64,000 bases of DNA, from positions 13,506-77,505 of IMG/VR virus record IMGVR_UViG_3300045988_116799. One strand, 5' to 3'. The notes under the pieces were generated by a model. The model was not told the DNA's origin and did no database searches. It worked only from the letters and a program-made list of their open reading frames with translations. The position numbers and the translations under genes were made by a program. How positions within the stretch are numbered: position 1 is the stretch's first letter; every line of letters starts with the position of its first letter. Of this stretch, positions 3,619 through 58,094 are shown piece after piece. The stretch comes from a virus.

Positions 3619-3710
3619 ATTCTTAAAGTTAAAAGTTAAAAGTGAAGAGTGAAAAATCCATGTGCTCTCTTAACTATCGGATTCTTCACTTTTCACTCTT
3701 CGTTTTTCAC

Positions 3711-4304
3711 TTAAACACTCATTTCCAGCATCTTTGGATAGCCTGCGGTATAATCATACCCAAGTACCTCCTCAACCGTGCTCATTTCCGCTACCGCCTT
3801 CTTGTGCGCAGCCGTAACGTTGAAGCACTCAAGGGCATACATCTCCAGTGCCGAGAGCAGCTGTATCGCCTTGTCGCACTCCACCACCAGCTTCACATCG
3901 CCCAGCCACAGCGTCGTTGTAGCCTGTCCCATGGCCTTCGCAATGGTCGTCGAGTTCATCAGTCCTACACGCGTAGCCTTGTCGAGCCACACACGCTGTC
4001 CGTTGAGGATAAAGCCGTTGACGGCAGAAGACGTGTCATGCTTCTCAATCTCCGCAAGCACCATCTTCTGTGCGGCAGCAGTAAGAGCTGCCTCCGAAGT
4101 CATGCCGCCAGTCTCCAGGCGCACACCGTCATACACCCACACCTTGCGTTCCACCACAGCCCACATGTCTTTCAAGTCAGAACTAAAAGTTTCCGGACGT
4201 TCTATTTGCGTCTTCTCCTGACCGTTGATAAGCAGCAACACAACACCATCGCCAACAGTCAATCGTGGCTGTGCCTCGCTAAAATAATATTTCTCCATAA
4301 TCAA
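3711..4304 (-). CDS. Tail-fibre-associated protein (DUF4376-like C-terminus)
   Basis: 197-aa ORF; LSALEMYALECFNVTAAHK..YDYTAGYP resembles the DUF4376-type domain seen next to phage fibre genes; recalled similarity, not searched. Confidence 0.4.
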   Translation of the reverse strand: MIMEKYYFSEAQPRLTVGDGVVLLLINGQEKTQIERPETFSSDLKDMWAVVERKVWVYDGVRLETGGMTSEAALTAAAQKMVLAEIEKHDTSSAVNGFILNGQRVWLDKATRVGLMNSTTIAKAMGQATTTLWLGDVKLVVECDKAIQLLSALEMYALECFNVTAAHKKAVAEMSTVEEVLGYDYTAGYPKMLEMSV

Positions 4305-13000: not shown

Positions 13001-15604
13001 CGCCACAATACGAGGAGTGCCAGGCCCCGTCGTCTCCAGTATCATCACGCCCTGGCGGTCACGCTCGTTAGGATTCTGATTGCCGTCAAGCACAATTGTG
13101 TCGCCAGCCATCGGCACGTCGCTGCCCAGCTCGCAGTTGTCCTTGGCTATCTCTATCCACCCGAACTTCTTGCCGTCATACAGCACATTGCCTTCCTCGT
13201 CAGTCAGCGCCACATTCTCATCGCTCACAGCCGTCACCAGTCGCCACCACGAGCGCGTCGGCTTCTGCTTGTTGGCAAGCCCGAACGTCTGGCAGCGGGC
13301 CTGGTCGCCCACACGCCACAAGTTCTGCGTAGCCGTAGTGCCGTCGTCGGCCAGCAGCCAGCAGCGCCAGCCTTTCAGCACGCCAGCCTCTATCAGCTCC
13401 TCAGTCTTGAATATCTTGCCGCCCGAACCGCTCAGGTACACATTGCCACCGGCATACGACAGCTTCCTCACCTCTAACTCTTGGAAAATAGCCTTGCCCC
13501 ACACCTGTAGTTCGTGAATGTCAAGCCTATACTTGCCGTCGCCACGGTCTACGATGCCAAACCCCTGCTGTGTCGCCCCGTTATAGCCCAGTGACACGAT
13601 ACGTCGCAGCACAGCGTTGCCCAACACTGCATTACCCTCCGCATCGACACCCTTTTCACCGTCACCTATCTTAAGACCCTTCATAAAGCGTATCTGTCCC
13701 TGAGCAATATCGTCATATTGCTTCGACAGAAAGTACTTGCTGCCATATTTAGAGACGATACTATTAAATTGTGAACCAGAATAGCTACTGCCGTTACCAT
13801 TTGAACTATTAGCAATGATTGTCTGCACATCATCTTTTAATTGTGTGACAGTTCCCTTGTTCGCCTGATTGCCGACTGTGATTTCTTGAATAAAATCATA
13901 ATCCAGATTGGTCGTTACCTTTAAAATTCGAGTGTCAAGTGTATAACCTTGACCATCGCTATATTTTACCTTTTGTCCAATTTGTAATCTCGGATTATTT
14001 GCTTCAAACACCTGCGGATATACAGAAAATTCGTAGTTGTTTAAATCTGAATTTAACCGTTCAATTTCTTTTATCGCTTTGTTCAACAATTTTTCTTGTG
14101 CGTCTTTCTGATATTGTTCAGACATCGCGATATTGTACAGGACAGTAATATTACAGCTTAAATTTGGCAAAGATTCGCCACGAGGTATCAACCTTTCATT
14201 TTCATTTGTCGGTATTATAAGATTATTCTCTTCTTGATAAATTATCTCATAGTCACCGCTCAAAATATTAAAATTGGCTGAATCTACATCATCAGAATCA
14301 TGCGCTGAATAATTGTCCTTGTGATATTTCAGCTCAAAACCAACATGCTCTCCATTTGTTCCACGACCTGCCAACGGGGTAGACAATGCATTAATGTTCG
14401 TATTCGCTTCGAATGAGCATGACAATGTTTTGCCGTTAACAATTAAATTGTCGGTTATTTCAAAGTCATACCAATAATGTGTTACCCCATCGTCTACAGT
14501 TTTATTCACAAGTTTTTTGGTCTTGTCTTCTGTATTTGTGCAGTACGCAAGGCGCATATACCACACCGTGAAGGTTTTATACGTTGCAACACTGCCGTCA
14601 GCATTATATGTAAGTGGTATTTTCTTTTTCGTAGTATCATCAAGAACATATTTTTGTCTTCCTCTAACTTTGTAAACATAAGTGTTTAGCGAAGGGAAAA
14701 CGTCAGAGAAATTCAGTACTTTTGTCAGCAAAGGTTCTTTGGTCTTGTCTTTGCGCAAGTCTATCGTAGAGAAATCGTCTACAGTGTATTCAACTTCTTT
14801 ACCGTTAATGCTGACAATCCCTTTTCCGCTTGCTAATTGCAATCGTATATCACTTGAAGAAACGTTCTCTCCTAAACTGTTTGTCTGTGTAATATTACGT
14901 GTACCACCAAACACGGTGTATGCATTATAGTAATTCTCTTTGCTTTCTGTGACAGATGGAGTTCCTATATTTCTTCCTACTTCTAACGGCACAGCAACTT
15001 CATCCAAGACAACTTTGCCAAGATAAATGTCTTCGTTGTCGTAATCTATATGCCATTCACACGTATCTCCTTCCGCATTTGCTATAGAAGACAAAGCAGA
15101 CAATACGTCATTATCAGAAAACGATACGGATAAAGAATTTTTTAATTCACCAGACAAAACTGACTTCCATCCGCATTTGCCAAACTGAATATCATTGTTT
15201 AGGAAATCGCATATTTTACCCATTATAACATCAGGCGTACCAACGAAAGTCCAGTTAGTCTGTTTTATGGTCTCGTTTTGCGAGTTTTTTGTTTTTATAT
15301 AGAAAGGTATTTTGCCTAACAACATTTTCGGATGCTGAAACTCCGGCGTATACTTCCACGACATTTCGTCAGTTTGCACTGGCTCGTAAGGTTCAAGCAG
15401 AGAAAAACGCTGTGTCACCTTGCGTGTCTGGTCTATATAATACGTGTGTACAATGTAAGCTCCGACGGGTAAAATGATTTTACAAGCAGCACTAAAAGAC
15501 AACGAGATAAAGTCGGACTTTGAAAGCTCTTCTTCTCGTTGTGCTTCTTTTGTGATAGGCGCTTGCATTATTATCTCGCCGTCAAGATTGTATATGTTTA
15601 TCAT
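10001..15604 (-). CDS. Large tail tip protein (Tal-like host-specificity protein) with collagen-like repeat
   Basis: 1867-aa ORF directly after the Dit-like gene. Contains a Gly-X-Y run GEKGDTGDRGPQGAQGEPGADGQPGAQGKPGKDGE (~12618-12725). ATGA overlap with the upstream gene. Confidence 0.75.
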   Translation of the reverse strand: MINIYNLDGEIIMQAPITKEAQREEELSKSDFISLSFSAACKIILPVGAYIVHTYYIDQTRKVTQRFSLLEPYEPVQTDEMSWKYTPEFQHPKMLLGKIPFYIKTKNSQNETIKQTNWTFVGTPDVIMGKICDFLNNDIQFGKCGWKSVLSGELKNSLSVSFSDNDVLSALSSIANAEGDTCEWHIDYDNEDIYLGKVVLDEVAVPLEVGRNIGTPSVTESKENYYNAYTVFGGTRNITQTNSLGENVSSSDIRLQLASGKGIVSINGKEVEYTVDDFSTIDLRKDKTKEPLLTKVLNFSDVFPSLNTYVYKVRGRQKYVLDDTTKKKIPLTYNADGSVATYKTFTVWYMRLAYCTNTEDKTKKLVNKTVDDGVTHYWYDFEITDNLIVNGKTLSCSFEANTNINALSTPLAGRGTNGEHVGFELKYHKDNYSAHDSDDVDSANFNILSGDYEIIYQEENNLIIPTNENERLIPRGESLPNLSCNITVLYNIAMSEQYQKDAQEKLLNKAIKEIERLNSDLNNYEFSVYPQVFEANNPRLQIGQKVKYSDGQGYTLDTRILKVTTNLDYDFIQEITVGNQANKGTVTQLKDDVQTIIANSSNGNGSSYSGSQFNSIVSKYGSKYFLSKQYDDIAQGQIRFMKGLKIGDGEKGVDAEGNAVLGNAVLRRIVSLGYNGATQQGFGIVDRGDGKYRLDIHELQVWGKAIFQELEVRKLSYAGGNVYLSGSGGKIFKTEELIEAGVLKGWRCWLLADDGTTATQNLWRVGDQARCQTFGLANKQKPTRSWWRLVTAVSDENVALTDEEGNVLYDGKKFGWIEIAKDNCELGSDVPMAGDTIVLDGNQNPNERDRQGVMILETTGPGTPRIVAYKGVLGYSHEGCEVFYVSPDGCKFVSTSFEWVSPTGDTIHIVNYRGEWQNGVSYSYYDQVSHNNGVWLCTNSEGSTTEPKEGNADWQLVMKAEKGEKGDTGDRGPQGAQGEPGADGQPGAQGKPGKDGESAIVALWNPNPLVLSTERDSDGNVSAVIDSDSVARVKFSRDGEDWGMSHILGYPSAQPRGCDAVVEADNDGFYVRIKDVFQHTVTASDGTTILVPVTTASVTLAARYKAADGTDSYIYTTLKVDIEVSAVWGGIEMNMYGLTSSFSEISNKYNNLPLKTQGELTDYTSTIKQTARDISLKVSETAVGRKNLLVGSALRRQGEGVFLVGDSFISILEQYNGVNSCCCSKKGFTGLKWCYNTYVGGRNIKVEKGKKYHFSVMAKATTPITVALEAVWTKNATSVDSAEGYKGPNGSGFVAQKTVGTQWERIEGVITVQPDAPYEYIQVDILTNLDKDGAFYLSQPMLVEGDEYVGWSLSKEDADYVGGNLLDNTDTLHVGGNLTWRDESYSTLHPKNDSADEKIRQTYNGLPTLNTDIRNATNVNSINMLEWTLGDDVVKKGQDYMLSFMAKGNIGGKFVAYLYKDGNQVVYTEVLDRVDGPNQHQAADGNAQVEFKEDYVWKRYWVHWRVVGGNLPKYVLIRCMQGCDLYVSQPKLEYGATVTEYTTSRSMSSRLLAAGIDINSKQITLTADKTVFRDQSGKETAVFKDGAINANLIKAKQAVIDTLRTESVEAGNLNVTGSSRFGIWAIEHDENLGCDIITANDTTVGNVNISGSMIQYTPAFVRSGNPISGYMRTGAQVTEFGCGDGAGNYTGIWLGKSAYTVARGATNDWGLPTGYAIPGATFGTAQLTAYVYSPFGGETPAVYLYKPQGGIVMETNAAIRGVFVNHVHDTGSDSGMGNSTGLVVAKNESYAITVSLPTQPIAGQQVTVIQKGGGKVYIKSNKKNIRTAGGTDVTQQRLSNSRGQISLFIYDGTDWNCTYITGRMSEY

Positions 15605-22312: not shown

Positions 22313-22882
22313 TTATACTTCCTTATCGATGTCTGCTTTTACATCTTCGAGCAAGGCCCAACGATGTCCGCTTACTTTTTCACCGCTTGCGTTGAACACA
22401 GCCATCTGGCGGAACTCAATGTTCAGGTTTGGAAGACCTGTCTTACCGATAGAACCGCTGCGAGTAACAGTCAGTTTCATTTTTGAGAACTGGAATACCT
22501 TAGCTGGTATGTCGTCAAGAACCTTGGTCTTAATCTGTACTGCCTTGTAGATTTGGTTATCAGTCGGGAGTTCTTCATTCCACTTGCTGTCAGTGGACGA
22601 CGTATAGCCGAGGATAGCCTTGAAAGTTTCAGCGGACAAGTCGTAGGTCTGTACCGTGAAGCCTTTGGTTGCTGCCGATGATGGAAGCACTGCATACGGG
22701 TCTTCTGAGTCTTCTATTTCTACGTCGCTCGTTGACGCTGCGCTATCATTGAATGTCAAAGAGCCAGACACGATAGCCTTGAACTTGAACGGAAAGTTAG
22801 TCGGATAGCCACCATTCGCTACAGGGTCGGCAATGGCAAATTCCTCAATGCCGTAAACACCATTTTTTCCTGTTTTTGCCAT
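22313..22882 (-). CDS. Major tail protein
   Basis: 189-aa ORF immediately upstream of the chaperone pair; positional call. Confidence 0.55.
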   Translation of the reverse strand: MAKTGKNGVYGIEEFAIADPVANGGYPTNFPFKFKAIVSGSLTFNDSAASTSDVEIEDSEDPYAVLPSSAATKGFTVQTYDLSAETFKAILGYTSSTDSKWNEELPTDNQIYKAVQIKTKVLDDIPAKVFQFSKMKLTVTRSGSIGKTGLPNLNIEFRQMAVFNASGEKVSGHRWALLEDVKADIDKEV

Positions 22883-27144: not shown

Positions 27145-27996
27145 TTACTTGTTTTTGTTTTCTCCGTTAATTTCGGCAATGGCTTGCTTTACATTAAAAT
27201 CGTTGCCGTAAAGCGCAATAATAAAGCGTTTGCCACGCTGATTCCATACAAGGGTTGTACTGGTTGATATTTCACCATTGCTTGACTGATAGTTGTAGGT
27301 GCGTGTACCTGCCAAGTTCCAACCTTTATAAGGCATCTTTAAGTGCCATTGTCCCGATTGCGAGTAAATTATACCTAATTCTTTTAGCTTGGCGTTGAGC
27401 GAGCGTGCCGTAATGTGCAAGTCGTCGGCAACTTGCGTTGTTGTAATGCAAGTTGTTGAAGCAAGTGTGTTGTCGTAGTATTCTGCTTTAGGTGCTGCGA
27501 TTTTGATTTGCTTGTCTTGCGCATCTATCTGTGCGTCTTTTTGTTCGATAACTATTTCTTGATAACGACCTTGTTCTTCAAGCTCTTTAATGCGCTTTTC
27601 GTGCTCGGCAATAACCTTGTCAGCAACTTTCATTGCACGTGCTAAAATTGTTGCAGGAGTGTCATTCTGTGTTGTTGCAATATAGCCACCTTTGGTGCGA
27701 ATTTCGTGAAGGATTTTCTTTACACCTTTCTTGAACTGCTTAGCAATTGGTTTGCGTGATTGCATAAGCAATTCATAAACACCTTCCTCTGTTAAGAACC
27801 ACATACTGCCACCACGACTTAACTTTAAATTAAGTCGTTCGTCCTCGTCAACATTGGCAACAGCACGTGACACATTCTTTAAACCAAGCCAATTCTGTAC
27901 ATCATTAGCCCGAAATAACGGGTTTTCAACAGACCCCCATACATCAATTTCCTTATCAAGGAAGGTTGATTTACTAATAATTCTGATTTCTTCCAT
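27145..27996 (-). CDS. Bro-N / KilAC-type phage antirepressor-like protein
   Basis: 283 aa. N-terminus has a Bro-N-like NPLFRANDVQNWLG...WFLTEEGVYELLMQSRKPIAKQF. C-terminus is KilAC-like: APKAEYYDNTLAS...TTTQVADDLHITARSLNAKLKELGII. Confidence 0.7.
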   Translation of the reverse strand: MEEIRIISKSTFLDKEIDVWGSVENPLFRANDVQNWLGLKNVSRAVANVDEDERLNLKLSRGGSMWFLTEEGVYELLMQSRKPIAKQFKKGVKKILHEIRTKGGYIATTQNDTPATILARAMKVADKVIAEHEKRIKELEEQGRYQEIVIEQKDAQIDAQDKQIKIAAPKAEYYDNTLASTTCITTTQVADDLHITARSLNAKLKELGIIYSQSGQWHLKMPYKGWNLAGTRTYNYQSSNGEISTSTTLVWNQRGKRFIIALYGNDFNVKQAIAEINGENKNK

Positions 27997-28210
27997 CTTG
28001 TGAACTTTTTAGAAGAATTTAGGCAAACAAAAAGCGGTCGCCATATACGCTGTTCACAAGATGGTAGTCCACTCGTAAGAGCTTCGTTTTTATCTATACG
28101 TATTGGCGACCGTGTATATTTCGGTCTTAAAGAGCATAAAATATGCCTATCCAGACGAATGAGCATTAACCGCTGCTCCCACGTAATGGTTTACCATCAT
28201 CTTGTGAACG
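27997..28210 (-). ncRNA. Structured 5' leader, copy A (candidate cis-regulatory attenuator)
   Basis: A 12-mer occurs three times: 28198-28209, reverse complement at 28052-28063, and 27994-28005 including the ATG. GC helix 28035-28049/28099-28112 is followed by a U-tract. A second copy lies at 57305-57516. Confidence 0.6.
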
Positions 28211-30531: not shown

Positions 30532-31317
30532 CTATTTTACGGCAGAGGTGTTTTTGAATTTGTTGATAAAATAGCACTGTCCCTTGCCAGTCACCTTTGT
30601 TGTGATTGTTGTATGCATAACGCCATCATTTCCGCTACGCACACCCTTCTTTATCTCGAAAAGTCCTTGCTCGACATATTGTTGGTTGGGGATATTGTAC
30701 CGTTCGCCTTTCTTGCCAAGATAGCCATTGTTCCGCAACCATTCAAACAACTTGTTCTGACCTATTGTAATGCCATTCTGTGTAAGAACTTTTGCAAGTT
30801 CCCCAACAAGACAGCTTGCCTTGCTTCCAACAATAGCATCGGCAAATGTGACCTTAGGCTGCATTTGCATGACCACGCCATTTAAAACAACGATTTCATG
30901 CGCTGATTCTTGCAACGCCTTTTGCTGTCGCTCGATTTTTTCTTGTTGTTCAGCCGCGAGGCGCAGAGCTTCGGCAAATGTCTGTGGCAGTCCATACTTT
31001 CCTGTTTTGCGGATTGAGGGTAATACATCGCCACACACCCAATCTTGGAAAGGCTCTGCGATAGGCTTGTCGGAGCGCATAATTAAACGATAGAGGTTCT
31101 GCTCGTTGATAAAGTGTGCTCTTTGTGTGCGCCCCATAGAATCTATGACCTCGATTGAATCTACCCCATCTTCTTTTAGGCGTTTCTTAGCGTCTGTGGC
31201 GTTGTTTATTCCTAATACTCGACAAATGTCTGCCAAGCAAAACAATGGCTCTTCACTCGTCCCTGCTGTTCTAATCTTTCCGAACGCAGGATTTTCAAAT
31301 ATTTTTATCTCGTTCAT
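30532..31317 (-). CDS. Bro-N / KilAC phage antirepressor (Ant-like)
   Basis: 261 aa. N-terminus FENPAFGKIRTAG..EPLFCLADICRVLG...QNLYRLIMRSDKPIAEPFQDWV. C-terminus PQTFAEALRLAAEQ...KVTGKGQCYFINKF. Confidence 0.8.
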   Translation of the reverse strand: MNEIKIFENPAFGKIRTAGTSEEPLFCLADICRVLGINNATDAKKRLKEDGVDSIEVIDSMGRTQRAHFINEQNLYRLIMRSDKPIAEPFQDWVCGDVLPSIRKTGKYGLPQTFAEALRLAAEQQEKIERQQKALQESAHEIVVLNGVVMQMQPKVTFADAIVGSKASCLVGELAKVLTQNGITIGQNKLFEWLRNNGYLGKKGERYNIPNQQYVEQGLFEIKKGVRSGNDGVMHTTITTKVTGKGQCYFINKFKNTSAVK

Positions 31318-39628: not shown

Positions 39629-40477
39629 ATGGCAAATTTGAAATTAACAAAAGAGAGTACGAATAGTGAAATCAAGGAGTATTTTACCGCAGTGTTAAAC
39701 CTTTCACAGTCCAACAGGGAATTTCCTGTAAGTATTGATGATGTATGGCCGCTTGTATATGGCAAGAAATCGGATGCTGTAGAAGCACTCATTAATAATG
39801 AGCAGTTCATAAAAGATGTTGACTATCAAGTTTTGCGGAAAAATCCGCAAAACCCCAAAGGGGGTAGACCTACAATAGAATACTACCTTACGACTTCTTG
39901 TCTTGAATATTTTATTGCCCGGAAAATCCGTAGTGTATTCGAGGTCTACCGGCAAGTCTTTCATAAAGCGGTACAAGCTATTGCTGTTCCTCAGACTTTT
40001 GCCGAAGCGTTGATGCTCGCCGCTAAACAACAGCAGGCTATTGAGGAAAAACAACGGCTAATAGAGCAAAAGAATACAGAGATAGAACAAAAGAACACAG
40101 AAATAGTTGAACTTTCAACCGCTATCACAGAAATGCAGCCTAAAGTCAGCTATGTAGACACTATTCTCCAGTGTAAAGATACTGTACAGGTGACACTTAT
40201 TGCACAAGATTATGGGAAATCAGCAAAAGCGTTCAATGTACTTCTTCGCAATATGCAAATACAGCGCAAGGTTGGCACAACATGGGTTGTACGTGCTAAA
40301 TATCTACAATGTGGTTATGTTCAGTCGGAAACATTTGAATATCCGCATAGTGACGGTACAAAAGGCGCGCGTGTCTATACGAAATGGACACAAAAGGGTC
40401 GATTGTTCTTATACGAAACATTAAAAAAGCATGGTATTCTACCACTTGTCGAACAAACAGAGCAAGCAAAGAAATAA
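39629..40477 (+). CDS. KilAC-domain antirepressor-like protein with a distinct N-terminal domain
   Basis: 282 aa; PQTFAEALMLAAKQQ...MQPKVSYVDTIL...TKWTQKGRLFLYETLKK parallels the C-terminus of 30532..31317. Confidence 0.65.
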   Translation: MANLKLTKESTNSEIKEYFTAVLNLSQSNREFPVSIDDVWPLVYGKKSDAVEALINNEQFIKDVDYQVLRKNPQNPKGGRPTIEYYLTTSCLEYFIARKIRSVFEVYRQVFHKAVQAIAVPQTFAEALMLAAKQQQAIEEKQRLIEQKNTEIEQKNTEIVELSTAITEMQPKVSYVDTILQCKDTVQVTLIAQDYGKSAKAFNVLLRNMQIQRKVGTTWVVRAKYLQCGYVQSETFEYPHSDGTKGARVYTKWTQKGRLFLYETLKKHGILPLVEQTEQAKK

Positions 40478-49552: not shown

Positions 49553-51046
49553 TTATTCTTCATTCGTCACAGACTGCGATGCGTTCGCCGACTCACCAAC
49601 ACCCATAAACGCCGCCTGTTGCATCATTTCACTTTCCTGCTCTTCTTTCATTTCTTTCTCCACGCTGTCGGCATCATCGTTGAGCGGATTAAGCTCAATA
49701 GAACGACGTTGTGAAGTAGAAGGCTTACCTCCATTGCTCTGTGTGATAAGTTGTAGCAGTTCAACATCATTCTTGGGTATGTAAGGTTCAAACAGGGGCT
49801 CAAAATCAATGTCCTCCGCTACGCTTGCATCAATACCCTTAACGTATATGCCTGCATTGCAAATACCGTTAGCAACGATGTTGCTTCTGCGTGTGAACAT
49901 TTCTCCGTACATTTCAGTTTTGTTGCCGACTTTCATAAATGGGTCGGTAAACATAAGACGTATGGCAGCACCGCTTGTGTTGTTGCCTAATGTCTTCATG
50001 TTTTCAAATGAAATGTCGGGAGTTTGCGTGAACGAGAATATGATATTAAACAGGTAAGCAATCTCGCCTTTCACACTCTCTGGAGAGTGGTCCCATGACA
50101 GCACTCTCATTTCCGTTTCTTTTCCACCTTGGAATACCGAACCTTGCTCGCCTTTTTCGGCAAAACCTTCCAGACGACCTTGAATAAAGTACTTTGGCGT
50201 GCCAAAATAATCGTTCGTGTCGCCCCAGTTCGATATACATTCTTCTACACGGTCGCACGCCCACTGAACATCTGCCCATTCCGATTTGTATTGGTAGTAA
50301 TAAACTACTGGTATCTTCGTGAAGCCATGTGCCTTTGCTTCGGTGAGTGTCCATCCCGAGCCATTATTGATGTACTTATACACGAATCTATCTGTGTAGA
50401 CATCAAAATGCAGCTCTTGTGTTCCAAGCTCGTCAAACGTGTAGTATTCACGTCCGAAACCATCCATCCGATGCCAATCATTAAAATGCGGATATAAATT
50501 ATCTCCATTTGCAGGAGAAAGAAGCTGTACTCGAATTTCACCGCCAAGCCGTCCATTTTCGTCTGTGGTCATGTACCATAGCTCTGCTGCTTCACATTGA
50601 GAAGACACTGTGCGAACAAGCTGCTTGTCAAAATACTTCATTTTGTTGTCGTGATAGCAGTGTGTAATCGCATCGAACAGTAGCTGCTGCTTGTTGTTGA
50701 GTGTCTTAATGTCTACGCCATGAGAATTCGCCTTGTAAGTTACATGGTTTGTGAGCAAAAAGCCCACTAACCTGTCGACTATCACTCTCTGTGTCGGTAA
50801 CGCTATTCTGACGCGGTCAACAAGTTTTGTCTTGTAAATGACCTGCCCTGATAAAGGGTCTTTCTGCTCTGTCGGAACTTTCACCTTCTTTTTCGGACGT
50901 TTTCCCTCGTCAAAGATATCGTGCTTGTAGGCATCCCATTGGCGCATAAGTTCTTCAAAGCTGTTGTGCTGTGGCAGCTTTCGTGCCGTTAGTAACATAT
51001 GTACTGTATTGGCATCGTTTGCGAGTATTTCTGTAATCTTCTTCAT
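49553..51046 (-). CDS. Portal protein
   Basis: 497-aa ORF between the large terminase and the MuF-like gene, with an acidic C-terminus; positional and size call. Confidence 0.7.
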   Translation of the reverse strand: MKKITEILANDANTVHMLLTARKLPQHNSFEELMRQWDAYKHDIFDEGKRPKKKVKVPTEQKDPLSGQVIYKTKLVDRVRIALPTQRVIVDRLVGFLLTNHVTYKANSHGVDIKTLNNKQQLLFDAITHCYHDNKMKYFDKQLVRTVSSQCEAAELWYMTTDENGRLGGEIRVQLLSPANGDNLYPHFNDWHRMDGFGREYYTFDELGTQELHFDVYTDRFVYKYINNGSGWTLTEAKAHGFTKIPVVYYYQYKSEWADVQWACDRVEECISNWGDTNDYFGTPKYFIQGRLEGFAEKGEQGSVFQGGKETEMRVLSWDHSPESVKGEIAYLFNIIFSFTQTPDISFENMKTLGNNTSGAAIRLMFTDPFMKVGNKTEMYGEMFTRRSNIVANGICNAGIYVKGIDASVAEDIDFEPLFEPYIPKNDVELLQLITQSNGGKPSTSQRRSIELNPLNDDADSVEKEMKEEQESEMMQQAAFMGVGESANASQSVTNEE

Positions 51047-51144: not shown

Positions 51145-52332
51145 TTATATTATTCCCAATATTTCGCTCGCACTCATGCCGCTGCCGTAAGCACCAAGTA
51201 CTTTGTCAAGTACAACATAACGGATTCCATCTAATCCATGATTCCACATGTCAATTGGTACATTGCGCCACTTTCCTTCTTTGTCCTGTTGCCAAGTATA
51301 GTTGTTGAACTCCTTGCGAATATTCACAGAACGGCTCGTAACATGTATCCTGAATTGTTGCATCTTCATAATGCCTGCGTTTATTGAGCCTTGAAACTTT
51401 GTAACTGGTTTGATATTCAGACCAGCATTGTATATTTCATCAACAAGACGTGGGTCTGCGCTCTCTGATATTATTTCTAAGTCGCCTTTTATAGCTTTAA
51501 GCTCTCTGATTATATCGTCAGTCATCATTTTCGTTCGATAACAACGTTCATCAACATATAGGTCGTTACCCCAAAGATACACTTCAACAATGGCTGTTGG
51601 GTCGTTGGTGTAACCAAAGTCCATGCCAATCCAATGATGTCTATGTGCTTCAACTGGTATGTAATCATCTACAACCACATTCTCAAATACAAGACCCTCA
51701 ACAATAGCACGCTGTCCGAGTCCGTATATGCGCCACAAACTCGGGTTTTTCCACTTCAAGCTTTCAATTTCATCAATAACCTTTTGCTCAAGGAATGGGT
51801 TGTCTTTATATGTGGATATGAACCAGTAAGTATTTTTCTCCTCGTTTACTTGGTTTATCCAGTGTTCTTCTGAGAATGAAGGGTTATAGTCGAGTATGGA
51901 GAACTCTGTAGTACGCATCTGTAGCTGCTGCCATTCTATGAAAGACAGCTCATTTGCCTCATTTACAAACAATATCTTACGCTTAGAACCACGCACCTTT
52001 TGCTCGTTGTCAGTGGAGAAGAACTCAATCCAAGAACCATTAGGAAATGTGTAGACATATTCTGATTTGTTCATTGACTTGTCATTCCACCAACCTAAAG
52101 AAAGCATTACGTTCTTAAAATCGCGGTATACAGTGCGTTTGATTGAGGGCATACCAGCACGTATTATGGAAACTGTTGTTCCGGCGTTATTAAAGCAATA
52201 GATACAAAGAAACTGCACAACCGACCATGTTTTGGCCGAACGCGAGCTTCCTTGTAATGATACGGTAGTAAATCCCGCTTTCTTGGCGGCATCTACTCTC
52301 ATGTAGTTCTTTGCTAAAAATACGTGTGGCAT
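51145..52332 (-). CDS. Terminase large subunit
   Basis: 395 aa; Walker A-like GSSRSAKT, Walker B-like ILFVNEANE, nuclease-half acidic residues; position after the small subunit. Confidence 0.8.
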   Translation of the reverse strand: MPHVFLAKNYMRVDAAKKAGFTTVSLQGSSRSAKTWSVVQFLCIYCFNNAGTTVSIIRAGMPSIKRTVYRDFKNVMLSLGWWNDKSMNKSEYVYTFPNGSWIEFFSTDNEQKVRGSKRKILFVNEANELSFIEWQQLQMRTTEFSILDYNPSFSEEHWINQVNEEKNTYWFISTYKDNPFLEQKVIDEIESLKWKNPSLWRIYGLGQRAIVEGLVFENVVVDDYIPVEAHRHHWIGMDFGYTNDPTAIVEVYLWGNDLYVDERCYRTKMMTDDIIRELKAIKGDLEIISESADPRLVDEIYNAGLNIKPVTKFQGSINAGIMKMQQFRIHVTSRSVNIRKEFNNYTWQQDKEGKWRNVPIDMWNHGLDGIRYVVLDKVLGAYGSGMSASEILGII

Positions 52333-56438: not shown

Positions 56439-57304
56439 TTATTTAACGGTTTTACCGTTGATGTTAGAAATAGCGAGCTTTACATTAAAATTGTTTTTGT
56501 AAAGTGCGAGAATAAAACGTCTGCCTCGTTGACTCCAAACCAGATATGGCTTGGCATAAGTTACGTCTTTGTGTCTGTCGTAATAGGTGTAGGTTCGTGT
56601 GCCGTGCAAATTCCATGTGCTGTAAGGCTTGTTCATCAGCCATTGGTTGGATTGACGGAAAATGATTTTGAGTTGCTGCAATTTGTTGTGTAACTCATTA
56701 GGTGTTATGCCAAGCTCGTTTGCGATTTGCCGTGTGGTGAGCATGTTCTCGGCAGCAAGCGTCTGCTCGTAGTATTCTACCTTTGGTGCATCCTTGGCGA
56801 TACGCTCGCTTTGTACTTCGATAACTTGTTTGCTTTGGCTGTTTTCGCATTCAAGTTCTTTGATACGCTGCTCACGTCGTGCGAGTGCTGTCTTGGCTGC
56901 TATCAAGCCACGGGCAATTATGTCTTCCTCGCTGTCTTCTTCTTTAGTCACAACGTATGCGCCTGTTGTGCGAAGCGAGGGCAGAACTTCGTTGAATACC
57001 CAATCTTGAAAAGCAATAGCATTCTTTTTGTTAGAGCGAAAAATACAACGATAGAAGCCAGGTTCTGAAATAAAATACATTTCTTCATCTTTAAAGATGC
57101 CTGTTTTTTGCCGTGTGCAACAACCTCTTTTGAGACCTTAATAATACTTAGGTCTCTAATTAAGCGTTCTTTCGTTATACTTGGGTTGGATAATCCTAAA
57201 GCCTTGCATACATCAGAAAGGCAAAATAAAGGTTCTCCGTTTTTGCTTAACGCTGTACGGAGTTCTCCAAACATTGGAGAATTGAAAATTTTTACATCGT
57301 TCAT
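56439..57304 (-). pseudogene. Bro-N / KilAC antirepressor-like gene split by a frameshift in an A6 run
   Basis: ORFs 56948..57304 (Bro-N N-terminal half) and 56439..57080 (rest of Bro-N plus KilAC) overlap. One extra A in the run at 57104-57109 would fuse them into ...VAHGKKTGIFKDEEMYFISEPGFY... Confidence 0.6.
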
Positions 57305-57516
57305 CTTTGAGCATTTATAAGATGATTATAGGCAAACAAAAAGCGGTCGCCATATACGCTGCTCAAAGATGACAGTCCACCCATAGGGCTTCGTTTTTAT
57401 CTTACGTATAGGCGACCGTGTATAATACGGTCTTGATGGGCATAAAATATGCCCATTCGGACGAATGAGCAATAACCGTTGCCCCTCCGGGATAGACTAC
57501 TATCATCTTTGAGCAC
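57305..57516 (-). ncRNA. Structured 5' leader, copy B
   Basis: The 12-mer CATCTTTGAGCA lies at 57504-57515 and at 57302-57313 (includes the ATG), with its reverse complement at 57360-57371. Central domain and terminator-like block are nearly identical to copy A. The TAATTTTG box lies at 57519-57526. Confidence 0.6.
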
Positions 57517-57590
57517 CACAAAATTATAAAATCTTCTGTGATGCACAAAACATTTCTTGAGATATTTTATCTTTTTAGCATAGTTAAGTT

Positions 57591-58094
57591 TTAAAAGCCT
57601 TTTAATTTCTTTTTTATGTGTGCTTTTGCCGCATTCAGACTGCCCCATTTTGTATCTTTCCAACTGTTGTATGTGGCATTCCATACGTGTGTATTATAGG
57701 TCGTATCTCCAAAAGAATCCGTTTCGGCTTCGATTTGTCCTCCACCGACTTTTGTGTTAATTGTATAAACTCCGCCTCCTTCGTTTGTGAACCTCATTCT
57801 GTCAACCTGTTTTATAAATTGAGAATTCTGGCGCATCAGTCTTGTTTGAATACCATCCATAAAGAGGTCTCTCGGTGTATCTTCTCTCAATCTTTCTGTT
57901 TTGGCGGCACCATACACTACAGTGCCATTAATAACTATATTGTCGTTTATGTTTTTTATTGGGGACTCTCCTTTTATACTTTTTATATTTATGCTGTTCT
58001 TGTTATTCGCAAGAACAACTTTTTCGGTAATTATTCTGCTCGCGCTTGCGTTAGAGCTGTTTACCGTTCTTGTTGAACCTCCACCTTTTGCCAT
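57591..58094 (-). CDS. Hypothetical protein
   Basis: 167 aa; N-terminus MAKGGGSTRTV resembles that of 53311..53895. Confidence 0.4.
   Translation of the reverse strand: MAKGGGSTRTVNSSNASASRIITEKVVLANNKNSINIKSIKGESPIKNINDNIVINGTVVYGAAKTERLREDTPRDLFMDGIQTRLMRQNSQFIKQVDRMRFTNEGGGVYTINTKVGGGQIEAETDSFGDTTYNTHVWNATYNSWKDTKWGSLNAAKAHIKKKLKGF

Follow-up and report, generated by a model that had tools for sequence, protein, structure and literature searches.

The window analyzed here, meaning the whole stretch of 64,000 nucleotides that corresponds to positions 13,506 to 77,505 of the IMG/VR virus record IMGVR_UViG_3300045988_116799, contains two minus-strand genes for antirepressor-like proteins that combine a Bro-N and a KilAC (ANT) domain. 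Each of these phage genes is preceded by a structured leader of about 215 bases; leaders and genes are referred to as copy A and copy B. The product of the copy A gene matches the PHROG anti-repressor Ant (E = 6.6e-47). In copy B, the coding sequence is distributed over two overlapping open reading frames (ORFs; 56948-57304 and 56439-57080). The frame change is apparent from a tblastn comparison with an intact homologue and is located near an A6 run at about 57096-57113 (CACGGCAAAAAACAGG). This split could represent a pseudogene, a homopolymer error of the assembly, or programmed frameshifting. An earlier annotation of the window (the original prediction) had regarded the ATG at 57302-57304 as the start of a Bro-N gene. 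This codon indeed starts the ORF 56948-57304, which contains the Bro-N domain according to Pfam.

The same annotation had reported a 12-mer that recurs at three positions of copy B. The sequence CATCTTTGAGCA is found exactly three times in the window, namely on the plus strand at 57302-57313 and 57504-57515, and as the reverse complement at 57360-57371. If one mismatch is allowed, 0.45 matches are expected per window, and four matches were reached in 0 shuffles. The sole additional match (one mismatch, at 22342) lies inside an ORF near its end and is attributed to chance. Copy A carries its own 12-mer in all three places (GTTCACAAGATG, which reads GUUCACAAGAUG on the transcribed strand). As stated previously, the two versions differ by one substitution and one extra base. 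The copies are furthermore identical over the block AGGCAAACAAAAAGCGGTCGCCATATACGCTG (57330-57361 and 28021-28052), whose length had been given as 31 nt. The actual length is 32 nt, and identity extends over 33 nt (57329-57361). The block carries the U-tract and the 3' arm of a long-range terminator-like helix, in agreement with the original prediction.

A Bacteroidota-type promoter would drive transcription of the leader on the minus strand; the consensus is that of Bayley et al. 2000, as cited in PMC2864571. The corresponding motif TTTG...TAnnTTTG is present directly upstream of the first segment in all homologues inspected. On the transcribed strand, the promoter is followed by segment 1 (seg1), the elements P2, P3 and P4, the 5' arm of the terminator-like helix (PT), seg4, the hairpin P5, seg2, the 3' arm of PT, the U-tract, seg5, and seg3 (Table 1). 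A structured domain of 132 nt separates seg1 from seg2, whose pairing (helix P1) can be extended to about 17 bp. P1 and PT share no bases yet cross each other, which is a pseudoknot topology. They may coexist in such a pseudoknot, in which seg2 would run on continuously into the 3' arm of PT, or they may be alternatives. In P3, the short helix was predicted by RNAalifold, and the second helix, which is almost invariant, was read by eye. Because the P3 helices hardly vary, the candidate pseudoknot is neither supported nor contradicted by covariation. The hairpin P5 occurs in the variants CUC/GAG, CCU/AGG, CCC/GGG, and UCC/GGA. A long stem connecting the bases after seg1 with those before seg2, which was suggested by minimum free energy folds of single sequences, was rejected; the local hairpins P2 and P5 covary instead.

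Table 1. Positions of the leader elements and associated genes. Coordinates refer to the window unless another reference is given.
Feature	Position	Strand	Description
Promoter of copy B, Bacteroidota-type	57519..57549	-	-33 element TTTG (57546-57549); -7 element TAATTTTG (57519-57526); ends 3 nt before seg1
seg1, proposed 5' decoy UGCUCAAAGAUG	57504..57515	-	At or near the 5' end of the transcript; exact match; covaries with seg2 in 24 variants
P2 hairpin GAUAG/CUAUC, loop UAGU	57491..57504	-	Compensatory changes at 5/5 pairs (27 sequences)
P3 region CCG/CGG and GGGCAA/UUGCUC	57467..57490	-	Candidate compact H-type pseudoknot; near-invariant loop CGGUUA
P4 hairpin AUGGGCAUA-UUU-UAUGCCCAU	57436..57456	-	RNAalifold; 98.5% paired; G-C/G-U changes only
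PT 5' arm CGGUCGCCUAUACGU	57404..57418	-	Forms 15 bp with the 3' arm, two of them with compensatory changes
seg4 AAGAU	57399..57403	-	Duplicates the 3' half of seg1/seg3; adjoins the PT 5' arm on its 3' side; with PT formed, pairs with the central AUCUU of seg2
P5 hairpin CCC-UAU-GGG	57380..57388	-	Followed by conserved UGGA; read from alignments
seg2, antisense CAUCUUUGAGCA	57360..57371	-	Complement of seg1 and seg3; family-wide covariation
PT 3' arm GCGUAUA-U-GGCGACCG	57344..57359	-	Directly abuts seg2
U-tract UUUUUGUUU	57334..57342	-	After PT; likely intrinsic terminator, as read from the sequence
seg5 UCAUCUU	57319..57325	-	Copy of the 5' half of seg2; 5' arm of P6; pairs with AAGAUGA (57301-57307) and encloses the AUG
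seg3, proposed target UGCUCAAAGAUG	57302..57313	-	Ends in the start codon (57302-57304)
Copy B gene, antirepressor-like	56439..57304	-	Bro-N and KilAC (ANT); Pfam domains split over two ORFs
Copy A leader	27994..28209	-	83% identical to copy B; same layout
Copy A 12-mer	28198-28209; 28052-28063; 27994-28005		seg1; seg2 (complement); seg3 with ATG
Copy A gene, antirepressor-like	27145..27996	-	Bro-N and KilAC/ANT (Pfam); 283 aa; starts at the ATG in the copy A 12-mer
Type II leader	L204-L258 (IMG/VR); in every locus, about 230 nt before position 1201		Upstream of orthologous Bro genes

An exact-pattern scan with the conserved block AGCGTATATGGCNNCCGCTTTT identified 117 IMG/VR contigs. The same scan of species-representative genomes gave only one Xylanibacter muris and one Prevotella contig. 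Among the phages in GenBank, no close relative of the window was found; only two Porphyromonas gingivalis phages matched the leader in blastn, each with another 12-mer in all three places. For the analysis of duplexes, 112 complete leaders with 24 distinct versions of seg2 were extracted. The leaders were compared by means of nhmmer and direct duplex statistics.

The mean energy of the cognate seg1:seg2 duplexes is -18.2 kcal/mol, compared to -8.2 kcal/mol for non-cognate combinations; for seg2:seg3, the respective values are -17.3 and -7.7 kcal/mol. In both cases, 0 of 20000 permutations reached the cognate value. The original prediction had attributed the coordinated changes to selection on two alternative RNA pairings, and the advantage of about 10 kcal/mol, seen across the 24 variants, bears this out. 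Independent drift of the three segments, which had been named as evidence against a function, was not observed: in the 112 leaders all three change together. The triple is therefore real and non-random, and it is under selection for RNA pairing. In seg2:seg3, 469 pairs are of the Watson-Crick type, with 3 G-U pairs and 10 mismatches. In every homologue, the end of seg3 coincides with the ATG or lies a few bases away at most. Seg1, unlike seg3, often pairs beyond the 12-mer via wobble pairs. The positions of seg1:seg2 that deviate from Watson-Crick pairing comprise 41 G-U pairs and 38 mismatches on the sense strand, but 23 G-U pairs and 56 mismatches if the opposite strand is considered. G-U pairs are thus favoured on the sense strand, which points to an RNA of this polarity.

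Five segments covary, compared to the three that had been noted originally. Seg4 shows -2.6 kcal/mol for cognate and -1.2 kcal/mol for non-cognate combinations, and its pairing with seg2 is present in every PT-constrained fold. For seg5 and the hairpin P6, which is predicted in nearly all of 39 variants, the corresponding values are -6.4 and -4.5 kcal/mol (0 of 20000 permutations for either segment). The whole structure yielded a covariation score of 0.279, compared to 0.189 for shuffled data (0 of 500); with slid partners, the score was at most 0.10. The RNA belongs to a new structured family, which is absent from Rfam 15 and occurs in phages of Prevotella and Porphyromonas.

The terminator-like helix, which had been postulated from the two copies, is real. 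PT is paired to 99.5%, contains invariant G-U pairs, and shows compensatory changes, among them a compensatory 1-bp insertion in the loci L029 and L001. The invariance of its 3' arm is in part an effect of ascertainment, because the search pattern partly fixed this arm. At the base of PT, CGGUCGCC and GGCGACCG form a G+C-rich stem that is followed by C-UUUUUGUUU, which is the arrangement of an intrinsic terminator. The U-run is retained in those matches where the search pattern did not impose it. A standard promoter and terminator scan did not call PT as a terminator, because the stem encloses about 45 nt and the loop is accordingly large.

Several further observations concern the same region. 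The GGCGAC of the PT 3' arm can also pair with GUUUGCC just past the U-tract, which gives a hairpin with the U-run in its loop (57331-57351, minus strand). In the family, this pair occurs as GGCAAC/GUUGCC, GGCGGC/GCUGCC, and GGCGA/UCGCC. The PT 5' arm and this downstream piece represent a second triple of the kind same-complement-same, which is missing in one group of nine members. On the plus strand, the complement of P5 followed by TCGTTTTTAT (57374-57390) has a weak terminator-like score; its T-run is not conserved in the family.

A leader peptide was considered and rejected. The AUG in seg1 is replaced by AUA in the P. gingivalis phages and is thus not conserved, the ORF comprises 34 codons in copy B and 17 in copy A, and the indels are not multiples of three. 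No conserved ORF was found within the leader. ARAGORN detected no tRNA- or tmRNA-like elements in the window.

The leader is closely associated with one type of gene. In the sample of 117 contigs, which was anchored on the conserved leader block, 114 downstream proteins belong to one Bro-N family that PHROGs lists as anti-repressor Ant. The remaining three comprise one ORF of 70 aa and, in P. gingivalis phages, small proteins of unknown function. When the copy A protein was taken as the starting point, 57 homologues were obtained from IMG/VR, of which only 7 are preceded by a leader of this type, designated type I. Most of the others possess a leader with a very different central domain behind the same type of promoter, designated type II. 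Its 5' end consists of the constant box GUUCAA and a variable box of 7-9 nt. Complements of the two boxes lie upstream of the ATG by about 85 nt, and the boxes themselves recur just before it. Type II leaders have no match in Rfam either. In the 20 variants of this triple, cognate pairing beats non-cognate pairing (0 of 20000 permutations). The hairpin P4 is present in type II leaders too, and the locus L224 is intermediate between both types. Because type II keeps the arrangement, the triple of putative decoy, antisense segment and target is a feature that is conserved across different central folds.

In order to relate the leader to known systems, it was compared with Rfam. At the gathering score, there was no match in the whole window or in seven related loci. 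When E-values of up to 10 were admitted for 57200-57650, C4 was not among the hits, which consisted of two chance matches to snoRNAs with E = 1.6-2. As a positive control, the models C4 (RF01695) and c4-a1b1 (RF03163) detected their counterparts in phage P1 with 68.8 and 51 bits. A literature search found no description of this leader RNA.

The closest precedent is nevertheless the c4/CI type of antisense system that controls antirepressors, and not a metabolite riboswitch. The immI operon (c4-icd-ant) of phages P1 and P7 has the formula a1 b1 - c4[a' b'] - a2 b2 - icd - ant; in the P1 record, the order is promoters, a1 and b1, the 77-nt C4 RNA, a2 and b2, icd, and ant1. In the literature, the a1b1 sites of P1 have been proposed to compete with a2b2 for c4. 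Likewise, one transcript of the phages studied here contains an upstream copy of the target, an antisense sequence, and the target at the translation start, on a scale of about 200-250 nt. In type I and type II leaders, the antisense segment is complementary to an upstream and a downstream site of the same transcript. The downstream site overlaps the start of an antirepressor-like gene, a role that was assigned on the basis of domains and PHROGs. In both systems, the downstream protein is an antirepressor or antirepressor-like protein with a KilAC/ANT domain; P1 Ant1, which is controlled by c4, shares PF03374 with the proteins of the window. Moreover, the specificity sequences differ between related phages, and the two boxes of type II leaders resemble a and b.

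However, there are clear differences. The hosts are Bacteroidota, whereas c4 occurs in Proteobacteria. Type I leaders have one contiguous 12-nt box in place of 7+8 nt in two boxes, and the putative target is the AUG of the antirepressor-like gene itself and not an upstream gene like icd. The antisense segment lies within the loop of a putative intrinsic terminator hairpin. Two additional copies of half-sites are present, as is a conserved 5' domain (about 90 nt). The mature c4 RNA of about 77 nt is released by RNase P and acts as an immunity factor in trans; for the leader described here, such processing and action in trans are hypothetical. The satellite phage P4 (order seqA - seqB - seqC) obtains its CI immunity RNA by cleavage of the untranslated leader of the regulated operon; the complementary sequences seqA and seqC lie on its upstream and downstream side, respectively, and both pair with it (PMC4825925). 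In the P1/P7 and P4 systems alike, the antisense RNA derives from the leader of the operon that is silenced, and the copy of the target on the upstream side is a competitor. Here, too, a sequence in the leader is flanked by two complementary sites. Pairing in P4 causes premature termination of the replication genes, whereas the downstream site of the present leader is a start codon. The terminator is located upstream of this site, between seg2 and seg3, and Rfam finds no relationship. In the Salmonella prophage Gifsy-1, the terminated leader RNA IsrK acts on its own read-through mRNA (PMC4825925). The likeness consists in one promoter with its own terminator, which would give rise to a short RNA and a read-through mRNA, and in alternative helices that would decide on translation. 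IsrK activates translation, whereas the present leader might act in either direction; moreover, IsrK belongs to a C4/SeqA-like structural group, to which the fold of the leader is unrelated as far as Rfam tells.

We propose, with a probability of roughly 55%, that the leader is an RNA-level module of decoy, anti-start-codon segment and target that works like c4 of P1/P7 or CI of P4, with a short or processed RNA repressing the read-through mRNA. Pairing of seg2 with seg3 would cover the start site from -9 to +3 and hide the start codon. Shine-Dalgarno pairing is regarded as being of minor importance in Bacteroidota, and hiding the start codon would therefore be an effective block. Seg1 at the 5' end of the RNA would serve as a decoy that competes with seg3 for seg2. 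PT and the U-tract probably stop most transcripts, yielding a short and structured RNA with a length of about 180 nt, and the gene would be carried by read-through products alone. The copy B gene has no other promoter and therefore needs this read-through. In the PT conformation, seg4 would hold the middle of seg2, such that its 3' half is left exposed. PT-constrained folds show this half as an internal loop of 6-7 nt, and its complement sits in the loop of P6. In the mRNA, seg5 would hold the AUG in the weak hairpin P6, whose loop would present the complementary bases. This geometry would suit nucleation from loop to loop, followed by strand exchange. The variable 12-mer would act as an address that determines which RNA recognizes which start site. 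The short or processed leader RNA would repress read-through mRNAs in cis and probably also in trans.

In most cases, the strength of seg1:seg2 equals or exceeds that of seg2:seg3. Given that seg2:seg3 and seg4:seg2 are conserved, seg1 should therefore be missing from some RNA species, or be occupied otherwise, at least for a certain period. Such a state might result from processing that releases the 3' domain, from kinetic trapping of the terminator fold, or from intermolecular titration. With respect to the two copies in the window, it had been suggested that the different 12-mers insulate both switches from each other. This is plausible, but the insulation would be only partial and asymmetric, with cross-pairing at -8 to -16 kcal/mol compared to -20 to -25 kcal/mol for the cognate pairs.

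A number of points weigh against the proposed mechanism. Homology to C4 is not detectable, nor is the leader detectable as a member of the c4/CI families in sequence or structure. The existence of the short RNA, its processing, its action in trans and the direction of regulation were deduced from the architecture. Nested folding prefers the seg1:seg2 state over the terminator state by 6-16 kcal/mol; in the favoured state, seg2 would therefore be blocked by its own leader and the gene would be ON. When the sequences flanking each leader were searched for extra targets of its 11-mer, 20 hits were obtained where 18.7 were expected, and the flank matches that were inspected (window 22342, L025 10069) lie inside ORFs. 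Nothing in these data therefore requires action in trans. The large conserved 5' domain that comprises P2, P3 and P4 has no role in the model. Furthermore, seg2 is identical in all pairs of leaders whose central domains are at least 95% identical. It thus mostly changes at the pace of the leader, and strong diversifying selection on the 12-mer, which was considered, is therefore not evident and not supported in general. An exception is the pair L001 and L002 from P. gingivalis, whose central domains look identical by eye and whose 12-mers differ. Finally, no integrase was seen in the parts of the window phage that were examined, and its Bro genes are located among structural genes. For this reason, "immunity" may be the wrong biological frame, and, instead of conferring classical immunity, the module may serve to control toxic or early accessory genes.

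Several of these points would be accommodated by a switch that operates exclusively in cis, as a riboswitch or a protein-responsive attenuator. In this case, the 5' domain would bind a small molecule or a protein and decide on the closure of P1. With P1 formed, the start codon would be free; otherwise, seg2:seg3 and the terminator would form, and the 12-mers would covary because one strand serves two helices. As in translational riboswitches, the 5' strand of P1 equals the sequence of the start region, and its 3' strand is complementary to both, so that the strand closing the aptamer doubles as an anti-start sequence. The structured and highly conserved 5' domain with its candidate pseudoknot, the terminator inside the leader, the lack of trans targets in the flanks, and the pace at which seg2 changes are in line with this idea. 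However, P1 comprises 12-17 bp with -18 to -27 kcal/mol and is at least as strong as seg2:seg3. The energy of a ligand could therefore hardly tip the balance. The P1 helices of known riboswitches are far shorter. The most invariant bases are located in helix arms (PT) and not in junctions, and seg4 and the exposed loops resemble the design of antisense RNAs and their targets. There is no match to any Rfam aptamer class, and 114 of the 117 downstream genes are antirepressor-like instead of being related to metabolism or transport of a ligand. Moreover, the central domain is replaceable: type II leaders keep the same triple, which suggests that the triple, rather than one particular aptamer, is the conserved function. 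On this evidence, we consider a switch confined to cis doubtful.

It is improbable that the short RNA is an activator as in the case of IsrK. The mRNA would then be inactive by default, with the AUG in P6 or under seg2, and the short RNA would act in trans by means of sequences like seg1 or seg4, whose pairing with seg2 or seg5 of the mRNA would make the start codon accessible. The leader terminator would yield the two isoforms needed, the AUG of nearly all variants lies within P6, three "sense" copies (seg1, seg4, seg3) are accompanied by two "antisense" copies (seg2, seg5), and IsrK itself provides a precedent (PMC4825925). Yet P6 is weak (-4 to -8 kcal/mol) and alone would barely block initiation. 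An additional activator seems unneeded, as seg1 already neutralizes seg2 in cis. Explanations at the level of DNA, in which the 12-bp repeats are recombination or invertase sites or the target-site duplication of a small mobile cassette, are highly improbable. Direct repeats do flank a cassette of about 190 bp that precedes different genes (Bro genes and unrelated small genes of P. gingivalis phages), and truncated or rearranged copies exist in L018, L029, and L030. However, a target-site duplication leaves the internal inverted copy and two covarying half copies unexplained, and the repeat always ends at an ATG. Where the repeats are imperfect, G-U is favoured on the transcribed strand, seg1 extends beyond the 12-mer by wobble pairs where seg3 does not, and the invariant G-U pairs of PT would be mismatches in DNA. 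The likelihood of chance or of a recent gene conversion within a copy, both without function, is negligible. Only the small size of the repeats speaks for it, whereas 0.45 matches are expected even with one mismatch, and this explanation is refuted by the 24 type I and 20 type II variants that keep the triple (0 of 20000 permutations).

Returning to the proposed repression by a leader-derived RNA, it is conceivable, if slightly short of an even chance, that type I, type II and the intermediates form an undescribed superfamily of leader RNAs in phages of Prevotella, Xylanibacter and Porphyromonas. Such leaders would be sequence-programmable controllers of antirepressor-like Bro genes, with an address for each phage or cassette, and their design would be a strand exchange between five segments with a terminator helix that crosses the decoy helix. 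They would be of independent origin and would represent the first RNA-based immunity of the c4/CI type outside Proteobacteria. Little is known about the control of lytic and lysogenic decisions and about the many Bro and antirepressor genes in phages of gut and oral Bacteroidota, and the RNA family is backed by dozens of natural compensatory variants. If this reading is correct, a large group of these phages gates the translation of antirepressor-like genes by means of a compact RNA whose 12-nt address can be exchanged, and the logic of P1 c4 and P4 CI was reinvented on an unrelated RNA fold. The natural pairs of address and target would then offer orthogonal elements for gene control in Bacteroides, Prevotella, and Porphyromonas, and they would provide a testable explanation for heteroimmunity and cross-talk among co-resident phages. 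It would also correct phage annotations that place ORFs across the leader. "Hypothetical protein" coding sequences that lie over the promoter and the structured leader and are probably spurious are annotated in GenBank at 2451-2621 in L001 and at 2492-2593 and 2603-2762 in L002 (BK068104, BK068105).

Individual loci show further variations. In L018 and L030 (IMG/VR), the 5' part of the leader is replaced by unrelated sequence. L030 retains only P5, seg2, the PT 3' arm, P6, and seg3; its seg2 and seg3 match although seg1 is gone. Prophages of the P. gingivalis type contain two tandem leaders with different 12-15-mers, which precede paralogous small genes of unknown function and are located near HicAB and an integrase (L029, 7685-7895 and 9195-9395; L001, 2506-2722 and approximately 3690-3894). 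In the second copy of L029, a deletion took seg3 and the start of the gene, and the promoter, seg1, seg2, and the terminator were kept.

The window contains two further Ant-like genes at 30532-31317 (minus strand) and 39629-40477 (plus strand), neither of which is preceded by the leader. There are thus at least four genes of the Bro/Ant type in 64 kb, two of them with the leader. These genes are interspersed with those for the portal (49553-51046) and terminase (51145-52332) proteins and with two ORFs of more than 1800 aa.

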